NCBI GenBank assembly: GCA_965228895.1
Contig: OZ245842.1
Coordinates: forward strand, 3,488,001-3,552,000
From: Alphaproteobacteria bacterium
Lineage (GTDB): Bacteria; Pseudomonadota; Alphaproteobacteria; SP197
Direction of reading: 5' to 3'
DNA: 64,000 bases
Shown here: in pieces, positions 39,632 to 40,766 of the stretch
How positions within the stretch are numbered: the stretch's first letter is position 1
Layout: each line of letters starts with the position of its first letter
Translations under genes and position numbers: made by a program
Notes under the pieces: model-generated
Seen by the model: the letters and a program-made list of their open reading frames with translations, nothing else
Told to the model about the DNA's origin: nothing
Databases searched by the model: none

Positions 39632-40420
39632 TCAGGTGTTGGGCAAAGGCGCCGGAAAGCATCTGGGAAAATCTGAAACTAACTTTGCTGCTTGTTCGTC
39701 ATTCACACTTCGAACGTAGTTCAGAACAGCTGAGCTCACTGGACCTTCACCGTTAGTCTGAACCGCCAGGCAAAATTCGGCATAGCGCTTTTCTGCGATC
39801 GTAAGTCCTGCTTTGTCCGTATCTATATTGAAGGCTGAGATTGCTGTCGATGGACCAACTGACTTCTCGTCGTTAACGGGAAAGTTCGACCTCTCAGCGG
39901 CAGCTCTAAGACTGTTAGTCGCCTCCTGTACCTGATCCTGGTTGTGTCCTGACACAATGATGTCGTCAACGTACACAGTTGCCGTGACCATTAGTTGTCT
40001 TAGGCAATTGCCTAGATCACTCTTATCTAATGCTAGAGAGGCCAGGAGAGGAGACTGAACAAATCCATACGGTAGGCCAAAGCGTTGTCGCCGATGATCA
40101 ACGCGCACTGTACTAGCGACAGCAAACTCTTCGGCATCGCGGAAACTGAAGCCGATAGTCTTCAGACTTCGTGTAACTCTGTTTCTCCGAACATTGCCAA
40201 AAAAGTTGCTTAGATCAAGCTTGGCAAGCCACGGGTTTCCGGAATGAGAGCGCAAAGCGGCAACATGGCCACCTCGCTGATAGTGAAAGAAAAAACTGGG
40301 CGCATTCCAGTTTTTTCGAATAGCACGAACATGAGCTTCTGCCTCGAACGCCAGTTCTTCGAGTTGTATGTAAACCCATTTCCCACTTGGTAGTCGGAAG
40401 CGCGATTGATAGTTTCTCAA
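39632..40420 (-). CDS. Short retron-like reverse transcriptase
   Basis: LDLSNFFG (motif A), LPYGFVQSPLLASL (B), VYVDDI (C), FPVNDEKS (D); GHVAALRSH at the retron NAxxH position; TTG start with GGAG upstream; AT-richer than flanks. Confidence 0.88.
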   Translation of the reverse strand: MRNYQSRFRLPSGKWVYIQLEELAFEAEAHVRAIRKNWNAPSFFFHYQRGGHVAALRSHSGNPWLAKLDLSNFFGNVRRNRVTRSLKTIGFSFRDAEEFAVASTVRVDHRRQRFGLPYGFVQSPLLASLALDKSDLGNCLRQLMVTATVYVDDIIVSGHNQDQVQEATNSLRAAAERSNFPVNDEKSVGPSTAISAFNIDTDKAGLTIAEKRYAEFCLAVQTNGEGPVSSAVLNYVRSVNDEQAAKLVSDFPRCFPAPLPNT

Positions 40421-40428
40421 CGTTCGAG

Positions 40429-40545
40429 CTATCTCCGACTGTAGTTAGTGATTAGGCTCACAACCATGTAGACAAGCAAAGCGAAGCGTAGAACTTCGTT
40501 TGCCAGCATTACGTAGCTGCGAACCAGATGCGGGTTAAACCTCAT
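40429..40545 (-). CDS. Unannotated 38-aa hydrophobic peptide (candidate membrane toxin/effector)
   Basis: MRFNPHLVRSYVMLANEVLRFALLVYMVVSLITNYSRR*; strong GAGGAG SD 7 nt before ATG; stop 8 nt before the RT start; below the ORF-track size cutoff. Confidence 0.65.
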   Translation of the reverse strand: MRFNPHLVRSYVMLANEVLRFALLVYMVVSLITNYSRR

Positions 40546-40560
40546 CGGTTCTCTCCTCAT

Positions 40561-40730
40561 CCCTGGCCATCTTGACGCCGAAGCGTACCCAATCTCTAAC
40601 CAATAATGCGTTGCCCAGCTGATCAGACAGTTGCAACCAACCGGTCAACTCCCGGACAACCTGAGATGGCTCACGGGGTAGTCCCGAGATGCCACTTAGG
40701 GTCGTCGTGAGGAGATCCCTATTGCCAGGG
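40561..40730 (-). ncRNA. Candidate retron msr/msd-like structured RNA
   Basis: Terminal arms CCCTGGCAAT / ATGGCCAGGG (9 of 10 complementary); internal hairpins at 40655-40706 and 40629-40650; ACGC-UUCG-GCGU tetraloop hairpin at 40575-40586. Confidence 0.65.
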
Positions 40731-40736
40731 CACCGA

Positions 40737-40766
40737 ATAATATCGTGATTGCAATCCCTTTTTCAA
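40737..40766 (-). promoter_or_regulatory. Sigma70-like promoter for the ncRNA-peptide-RT operon
   Basis: TTGAAA-18 nt-TATTAT; predicted start site near 40730 coincides with the 5' inverted-repeat arm. Confidence 0.6.

Follow-up and report, generated by a model that had tools for sequence, protein, structure and literature searches.

A 1.28-kb islet combining a structured RNA, a conserved micro-ORF and a compact reverse transcriptase, with a possible role in phage defense

The locus and its insertion site

The DNA analyzed here, referred to as the window, is a stretch of 64,000 nucleotides (nt) from an alphaproteobacterium of the SP197 lineage (assembly GCA_965228895.1, contig OZ245842.1, positions 3,488,001 to 3,552,000 of the forward strand). 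Its minus strand carries a small cassette that encodes, in this order, a structured non-coding RNA (ncRNA; 40561-40730), a micro-open reading frame (micro-ORF; 40429-40545) and a reverse transcriptase (RT; 39632-40420). A preliminary description of this DNA had proposed these three parts and a promoter ahead of them, had labeled the ensemble a retron-type system resembling Type VI retrons, and had reported that no nuclease, ATPase, TIR, SLATT or helix-turn-helix (HTH) partner accompanies it. The promoter, the approximately 170-nt RNA bracketed by inverted arms, the 38-codon hydrophobic ORF with its Shine-Dalgarno (SD) sequence and the RT with its YVDD motif were all found where it had placed them, and because each of these elements recurs in related loci, they represent more than chance.

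Comparison with a congener (genome G401, contig C258) revealed an empty version of the insertion site. The gpD-like, gpV-like and tetratricopeptide repeat (TPR) genes that surround the cassette are common to both genomes, with 86-91% identity, and the stop codon of the gpV-like gene is separated from the start of the TPR gene by 74 nt in the congener and by 1286 nt in the window. Reading both junctions against G401 fixed the limits of the inserted islet at 39617-40899 (1283 nt), which stands in place of about 70 nt of intergenic congener DNA and contains the entire module; no target duplication was seen at either junction. As the junctions bound 39617-40899, the islet consists of the promoter, the RNA, the micro-ORF and the RT gene alone. 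Its base composition is also distinct, the GC content over 39600-40950 being 0.47-0.53 (about 0.49) compared to about 0.62-0.69 (about 0.65) in the flanks, in agreement with the AT-richness noted earlier. The reported lack of a partner gene was borne out as well, both by the empty site that bounds the islet and by the related loci: when ORFs within 3 kb of the RT were clustered for the sources with an assigned RT start, excluding antisense ORFs over the RT, no neighbor was common to more than four loci. These data support the view of the module as a self-contained three-part cassette.

The RT gene encodes 262 amino acids (aa) from a TTG start, with YVDD at 39973-39962 and a Pfam RVT_1 match of 68.5 bits. 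A protein search with this sequence gave 471 matches, and the 120 listed were 169-299 aa long, mostly 250-270 aa, with at most 58% identity to the window RT among those listed; strains of Burkholderia gladioli and Stenotrophomonas are among the carriers. An exhaustive search retrieved 614 cluster representatives at E<=1e-3, 318 at E<=1e-10 and 165 at E<=1e-30, and an alignment of 34 proteins drawn from the listed matches (A1) contains 27 invariant residues, including D69, LPYGFVQS, YVDD, AFN and Y235. The proteins form a discrete RT family of about 255 aa (about 250-270 aa). The nearest clusters in the ESM Atlas are named only "reverse transcriptase domain-containing protein", and of 401 genomes sampled from the phylum, 4 contain the family, the window's own included.

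The structured RNA and its pairing with the micro-ORF

The promoter is of the sigma-70 type (TTGAAA-N18-TATTAT; 40737-40766, minus strand), and its -10 element ends 6 nt ahead of the 5' arm of the RNA. It is one of two promoter-like sites in 39500-40950, where shuffles gave an expectation of 0.9. Among related loci, a -35/-10 pair with the -10 ending 5-12 nt before the 5' arm was detected in 30 of 56, at 6-8 nt in 28 of them, and the same scan placed 200 nt farther upstream as a control returned 2 of 56. Because the promoter lies at a fixed distance from the arm, the RNA presumably starts at the 5' arm, as it does in retrons.

The RNA itself (40561-40730, 170 nt) resembles the msr/msd RNA of retrons and is closed by terminal arms, CCCTGGCAAT (40730-40721) and ATGGCCAGGG (40570-40561), which pair at 9 of 10 positions and include an uninterrupted core of 7 bp, CCCTGGC/GCCAGGG. 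The 5' strand of this core helix (P1; CCCUGGC, 40724-40730) is followed by AAUAGGG (40723-40717), in which AGG is invariant in the family (A14, G15, G16), and pairs with the 3' strand GCCAGGG (40561-40567). When 32 sequences were aligned with MAFFT, the arm helix reached 99.6% pairing and five of its seven pairs showed compensatory changes; its covariation score was reached by none of 500 shuffles, and helices slid along the same alignment as controls were 27-40% paired. A model-fitted alignment of the 56 distinct sources in which the arms were accepted raises the compensatory changes to six of seven pairs, although an alignment of this kind leans to structure. A conserved UAGG ahead of the 3' arm and the invariant AGG behind the 5' arm place opposing G residues by the stem, so that the RNA has both the hybridizing terminal repeats (six of seven pairs covarying) and the opposing G residues of an msr/msd-type RNA. 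When folded alone, the ncRNA closes the arm helix in its minimum free energy (MFE) structure (z -2.1).

A common plan was read in the 230 nt upstream of the micro-ORF in 80 loci gathered with alignment A1. From the 5' end it comprises a CC(C/U)GGC arm, (G/A)NUAGG, a hairpin, an SD-complementary stretch and a GUCAC-NNN-GUGAU hairpin; then come a variable hairpin, UUGGUU, CAUGCGC-UUU-GCGC-UAGG, the 3' arm, and the SD with its AUG. In the window, an extended GUGGC...GCCAU hairpin (40666-40695) occupies the site of the relatives' conserved GUCAC-NNN-GUGAU hairpin, and the terminal hairpin is ACGC-UUCG-GCGU (40575-40586) where relatives have GCGC-UUU-GCGC followed by UAGG. A covariance model, R1, built from 32 beta/gamma-type sequences, matches the window at 40525-40733 (53.9 bits, E 2.9e-11), this being its single match in the window's own genome. 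It also matches 56 of 83 family sources, always immediately upstream of the RT and on the same strand, including loci outside its training set such as a Pantoea plasmid (L101) and a Klebsiella P2-like prophage (L102). The alphaproteobacterial variant is picked up weakly (three matches, L059, L068 and L072, at 21-25 bits), and none of nine Type V/VI retron loci was matched. Rfam gave no match in 39000-41500 or at the ncRNA of eight other loci, the other Rfam matches in those eight being tRNAs, noise below threshold and, in L005, a group II intron with no relation to the module. Taken together, these comparisons indicate that the approximately 170-nt RNA is specific to this RT family.

The micro-ORF starts at the ATG at 40545, stops at 40431-40429 and has 38 codons plus the stop (MRFNPHLVRSYVMLANEVLRFALLVYMVVSLITNYSRR); GAGGAGAG precedes the ATG, and the ORF listing, which begins at an upstream ATG, gives 43 aa. 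Its SD region, UGAGGAGA (40552-40559), is likewise placed in relatives. The peptide has a basic N-terminus, then a hydrophobic helix and a conserved NY, and in 69 of the 74 sources with an assigned RT start a homologous ORF with NY at its end lies shortly ahead of that start or overlaps it (the NY codon pair was missing from 5 of these 74, and for 7 of 81 sources a regular expression recovered no RT motif or start). Counted from the SD-proximal AUG, the family peptides extend 33-44 codons to NY and follow the design M(K/R)K..(R)L, a hydrophobic or amphipathic stretch, and (N/S)(M/K)(A/V)(F/V)NY. The maximum 19-residue Kyte-Doolittle hydropathy is 1.84 for the window peptide and at least 1.6 in 30 of 37 peptides, and the median net charge is +3. 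All 56 distinct sequences keep this frame open through their last 33 codons, compared to 1 and 6 of 56 for the other two frames; diversity at the three codon positions is 0.668, 0.578 and 0.703 (position 3 versus 2, p-value: 3e-4), and T makes up 48% of second codon positions (L005, L065, L039 and L073, whose start was mis-assigned, were set aside in these coding tests). Such a coding signature argues that the micro-ORF is a real conserved gene. Its product matched no family in Pfam, PADLOC, NCBIfam or PHROG, and its ESM Atlas matches were all below 0.9, DinQ and TisB at 0.75-0.76 being leads only. A predicted complex of the RT with the micro-protein scored 0.02, which we count as evidence neither way.

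Two further helices tie the RNA to the micro-ORF. The first joins an anti-SD stretch near the 5' end of the RNA, UCUCCUCA (40708-40715), to the SD region, of which it is the perfect complement. This complementarity is locus-specific: over 29 loci, pairing energies averaged -13.1 kcal/mol within a locus and -8.6 kcal/mol across loci, and none of 10000 permutations was as low. L010 was left out of this test, and for the window and L026 it used an incorrectly placed 5' segment, which weakens rather than strengthens the result. Further examples are provided by L026 itself (CCUUAGAUC/GAUCUAAGG) and by L029 (10 bp). The second helix joins the region of the conserved UUGGUU element, UGGUUAGAGAUUGG (40589-40602), to the last codons of the micro-ORF, CUAAUCACUAACUA (40442-40455), with 13 of 14 positions paired, two of them as G-U, and it is contained in the MFE structure of the 336-nt transcript (z -3.1). 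Here again pairing was stronger within loci (-13.7 kcal/mol) than across them (-9.8 kcal/mol) in 46 distinct loci, with 0 of 10000 permutations as low; duplicates and seven alphaproteobacterial-clade loci without a UUGGUU-type match stood outside this test. Within the family, a synonymous change of AAC to AAU in the Asn codon is accompanied by a change of UUGGUU to UUAAUU or UUGAUU. The anti-SD:SD helix crosses the P1 arm helix, and predicted folds fall on both sides, the RNA of L016 including the SD folding with anti-SD:SD closed and the window ncRNA alone with the arms closed. The two helices may thus form either a pseudoknot or the alternative states of a switch.

Inspection by eye of the alphaproteobacterial loci L048-L077 gave a variant of this arrangement. 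There, CAGUUGAC(G/A)AC pairs with the ORF end GUCGUCAACU over up to 10 bp, the AUG of the RT overlaps the NY codons (AACUAUG), and the SD-complementary stretch seems to form the 5' side of the last hairpin, which would put this hairpin in competition with the SD.

Affinities of the reverse transcriptase and comparison with known systems

Retrons are defined by RTs of the retron and retron-like clades (types I to XIII) that carry the VTG and NAXXH motifs and by an msr/msd RNA that gives rise to multicopy single-stranded DNA (msDNA; 2'-5' branched RT-DNA), as formulated by Mestre et al. 2020 (PMC7736814). The designation of the cassette as retron-type holds for the fold of the RT and its closest solved relatives, and fails on type: no PADLOC retron type fits the protein, and VTG is absent. 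By profile, the closest solved relative is the RT of retron Ec86 (E 5.7e-11), positions 15-257 aligning with Ec86 residues 63-305. The AlphaFold2 (AF2) model of the RT is confident (pLDDT 96), and the top ten Foldseek matches in the PDB are all retron RTs (TMq 0.64-0.74). Because the alignment with Ec86 begins at its residue 63, the family RT lacks the N-terminal region of about 60 aa.

Among curated models, no PADLOC retron type, DRT or UG model and no NCBIfam model fits the RT. Its best PADLOC scores, about 60 bits, were given by a Cas-associated RT model and by RT_IX and cover residues 44-187 only, and its NCBIfam scores lie far under the model cut-offs. Against the PADLOC retron hidden Markov models (HMMs), the 34 aligned members reach E values of about 1e-20 at best, over the core only and with several types alike, whereas genuine genomic retron RTs reach 200-330 bits even with an HMM made for a different retron type. 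On the RT_VI model in particular, the window RT scores 40.8 bits and the family 40-70 bits (best of the 34 members, E 6.7e-19), compared to 213-334 bits for true Type VI RTs, a lineage within RT clade 3, and 213-235 bits for Type V RTs. A maximum-likelihood tree (quick search with SH-aLRT support) was built from 56 rows, of which 27 belong to the family, 24 to typed retrons and 5, the outgroup, to group II introns. In it, all 27 family rows form one clade on a long stem (SH-aLRT 99), sister to a clade that contains types I-A, I-C, II-A, V, VI, IX, XI and XIII (SH-aLRT 91). Because RTs of diversity-generating retroelements and UG/Abi and Cas RTs stand outside this tree, a position as sister to the retrons is provisional; the lineage branches outside all the retron types sampled.

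Three other assignments were considered and rejected. As a member of the UG/Abi/DRT group, the RT has best scores of 51.5 bits (Drt9) and 36 bits (UG17), over the core only, and the protein stops about 70 residues past YVDD. A C-terminal helical-repeat extension of UG/Abi RTs was reportedly described by Mestre et al. 2022; no fused or long forms of 460-2000 aa were found at E<=1e-20 for the present family, in a search that is weak evidence. A diversity-generating retroelement would have a template and a variable repeat, which were not found, and none of the 12 direct-repeat families in 33000-47000 touches 39600-40900. A group II intron was discarded on the lack of any Rfam match in 39000-41500 and on a TIGR04416 score of 40 bits against a cut-off of 300. 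At one related locus, in Marinobacter algicola (L005), a group II intron does lie about 2.4 kb downstream of the RT module (7187-7479; Rfam domains D1-D4, 129.6 bits) and is unrelated to it.

With canonical retrons (Ec86, type II-A) the family shares, besides the RT fold and best profile match, an RT gene downstream of the RNA, terminal inverted repeats at the extreme 5' end of the transcript, a conserved G (within UAGG) by the stem on both strands, and short conserved hairpins followed by a variable one. It differs from them in its RT motifs and missing N-terminal region, in falling outside the sampled types in the tree, and in having, as candidate effector, a micro-ORF joined to the RNA.

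The resemblance to Type VI retrons suggested earlier stands for the RNA architecture and falls for the RT. In the preprints on Type VI retrons, a toxic small protein is described as embedded in a structured hybrid RNA in which its ribosome binding site (RBS) is sequestered (Zhang et al., bioRxiv 10.1101/2025.10.22.683967; Garcia-Rodriguez et al., bioRxiv 10.64898/2026.04.27.721009). The former describes the small protein of Retron-Vpa2 as toxic and translationally repressed until msDNA derepresses it, and the latter places the RBS of Retron-Sen3 in the basal stem and describes an inverted repeat that ties the ncRNA to a region past the small-protein ORF. The present family, likewise found in proteobacterial hosts, shares with these systems a single transcript that combines an RT-associated structured RNA with the ORF of a small hydrophobic protein upstream of the RT, an RBS predicted to be sequestered in the RNA, and a long-range repeat that links the ncRNA to the 3' end of the ORF. 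The RT of the family belongs to a different lineage and is shorter by about 50-70 aa, and the peptide has 33-44 aa to NY, compared to 75-79 aa for the three-helix bundles reported as Type VI small proteins. The ncRNA went undetected by R1 in Type V/VI loci, and the long-range helix ends inside the ORF, in its last codons, whereas that of Type VI lies downstream of the stop. Type VI loci L081-L086 and L088 contain recognizable HTH ORFs, whereas the islet has no Cro/C1 HTH antitoxin: no HTH of this type (cluster 2_1) upstream of or overlapping the RT was found in the islet ORFs or conserved in the clustered loci. Because RT lineage, RT size, peptide size and RNA family differ and the HTH is absent, the module does not appear to be a Type VI retron, and we describe it as a retron-like hybrid-RNA system whose RT lineage lies outside the 13 retron types. 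The literature consulted contained no description of the RT family, the ncRNA or the micro-ORF, although members may figure in the RT lists, small-protein clusters or trees that supplement Mestre 2020, Zhang 2025 and Garcia-Rodriguez 2026.

A candidate RNA-controlled toxin and alternative explanations

The family occupies prophage and plasmid cargo sites. It was found in nine plasmid records, three of them conjugative and two mobilizable, in which the RT is annotated only as a reverse transcriptase domain-containing protein. In the Pantoea agglomerans plasmid NZ_CP090210.1 (L101; 1893-3741), the module lies downstream of ssb, after psiB, and fills an annotation gap between psiB and the RT gene, its ncRNA and micro-ORF being unannotated. 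In 13 Klebsiella Peduoviridae records (P2-like prophage) it stands at the end of the record, after tape measure, tail-protein and gpD genes, and the window module likewise abuts a gpD/gpV-like pair. A defense or mobile gene lies beside the module in 6 of 10 sampled loci (HsdM, TIR, AAA_13, two integrases, SNF2-PLD and NucS-like).

With a retron-like RNA fused to a structurally blocked peptide mRNA, and with the hybrid RNA of Type VI retrons as precedent, we favor an RT-controlled toxin switch. That the islet is a mobile, self-contained module of this kind, acting most likely in abortive-infection defense, has in our estimate an even chance of being correct. In this model, the promoter would drive a single transcript from the 5' arm, comprising the retron-like template or scaffold RNA and the mRNA of the 38-residue peptide, with the RT gene after it. 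At rest, the SD would be held by the anti-SD of the ncRNA and the end of the ORF clamped to the UUGGUU region, so that no peptide is made. The RT would bind this hybrid RNA and reverse-transcribe its 3' half; once RNase H had removed the template, or the cDNA had bound, the RNA would refold and the SD would become accessible. Translation of the peptide would follow, and with it injury to the infected cell's membrane, phage infection being the presumed trigger.

In its strongest form, this model would make the family an unrecognized RT lineage sister to all retrons and the most compact RT immune module known, with two genes and one RNA in 1.28 kb. Its template RNA would be the mRNA of the toxin, and reverse transcription would flip a switch of three covarying long-range helices, thereby licensing a membrane-disrupting micropeptide with no need of a protein antitoxin. 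We advance this complete version only tentatively and think it somewhat doubtful.

Several observations weigh against the toxin switch. Both of the Type VI retrons studied are reported to need an HTH protein for silencing of the toxin, and this protein is absent here. The VTG triplet (RT7, region Y) is replaced throughout the family, the aligned site being (T/S)AFN with F197 and N198 invariant, and where Ec86 has LNNATPH for the NAXXH motif (region X), the family has VAALRxH, in which H59 is invariant and the N and A are not kept; with VTG replaced and only the H of NAXXH retained, 2'-OH-primed msDNA synthesis cannot be assumed. The P1 and anti-SD:SD helices cross, as a pseudoknot or as alternatives, so that a switch may run in either direction. 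Because the end of the ORF pairs with the ncRNA, the conserved C-terminus of the peptide (NMAFNY or KVVNY) reflects in part the RNA and not the function of the protein. Close pairs give a mixed ratio of synonymous to non-synonymous changes (4 versus 10 for L003/L006, 5 versus 0 for L013/L034). Finally, only housekeeping or unassigned neighbors were found in 4 of the 10 sampled loci.

A selfish addiction module, resembling a type I toxin-antitoxin system, would use the same parts to stabilize a plasmid, prophage or islet with no role in phage defense, the peptide mRNA being silenced by its leader, the RT and the cDNA. Type I toxin-antitoxin peptides such as TisB, DinQ and those of the Hok type are hydrophobic, cationic and about 30-50 aa long, and their translation is blocked by structure in the mRNA leader. 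The family peptide is like these small membrane toxins in size, charge, hydropathy and a leader-blocked translation, predicted here from the anti-SD:SD pairing, and the carriage of the module on plasmids, in a P2-like prophage and, in the window, as a mobile islet would suit such a role. However, the likeness is one of general properties rather than of demonstrated sequence homology, the leader is an RT-associated RNA followed by an RT gene, and an RT would be a costly antitoxin. Several loci adjoin defense genes, and the characterized RT-ncRNA-effector modules of this shape are all antiphage in the literature consulted. We therefore consider pure addiction unlikely, although defense and addiction are mutually compatible.

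To the same degree improbable, in our judgment, is that the micro-protein is a partner of the RT rather than a toxin, as an N-terminal segment split off from it, as a membrane anchor or as a leader peptide whose translation gates expression of the RT, with the effector elsewhere, for example the cDNA. The N-terminal region that the RT lacks relative to Ec86 would fit this explanation, as would the usual overlap of the micro-ORF with the RT start, by 4-163 nt, and the two proteins in which micro-ORF and RT are joined in one frame, P0222 (316 aa) and P0245 (L047, 1311-2148). Yet these are the only two fused forms, and that of L047 is possibly an indel artifact, because its RT is truncated and the record is a long-read metagenome-assembled genome. 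AF2 gives a complete and confident model of the RT when the peptide is left out, a leader peptide would need no conserved basic-then-hydrophobic design, and sequestration of the SD points to synthesis of the peptide as the controlled event.

An ordinary Type VI retron that had lost its HTH gene and shortened its small protein would have the gene order (ncRNA, small ORF, RT) and RNA logic seen here, and about 22% of Type VI entries are reported without an HTH in the sources consulted, but we regard this origin as very unlikely in view of the RT_VI scores, the position of the family outside the clade that contains Type VI, the failure of R1 at all nine Type V/VI loci and the length of the peptide. 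Equally unlikely is an untranslated micro-ORF serving as the 3' domain of a longer structured RNA, which could account for the pairing of its last 5-16 nt with the ncRNA but not for its open frame, the SD and ATG at a fixed place, the codon periodicity with its T-rich second position, or the conserved MKK-type N-terminus.

If the toxin switch is real, hybrid-RNA logic would not be peculiar to Type VI retrons and would be recurrent, or ancestral, in a separate lineage with much smaller RTs and no protein antitoxin, and the islet would offer a minimal, easily cloned system of 1.3 kb in which to study the coupling of cDNA synthesis to toxin translation. An RT this compact, at about 255 aa, and with its cognate RNA defined, is also possible material for tools. 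As no PADLOC or NCBIfam model matches the RT, current defense finders miss the family.

Some features of the surrounding DNA deserve mention. The listed start of the TPR gene on the plus strand, 40842, falls within the islet, and comparison with the congener suggests that the real start is probably the ATG at 40914 (40914-42578); a paralogue 69% identical to this TPR protein is encoded elsewhere in the same genome (G000:C1:3437863-3439250). On the other side of the islet, 37776-39610 (plus strand) encodes the gpD-like protein (Phage_GPD, phrog_52) and the gpV-like protein with an OB-fold (Phage_base_V). The two genes form an isolated, overlapping pair directly after a LysR-type gene, without other tail genes nearby, and are kept in G401; they may represent a split VgrG-like spike or the remnant of a prophage. 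Just after the TPR gene, at 42603-42667, about 57-65 nt are matched by at least seven separate contigs of sequencing run X1, with 6-8 differing letters each and a summed depth that climbs to 80, which looks like a short dispersed, REP-like repeat. Further along, two segments of 245-300 nt are repeated between 44428-44992 and 46144-46705 with a spacing of 1713-1716 nt and 73-74% identity (families D1 and D2), and look like tandem paralogous genes.

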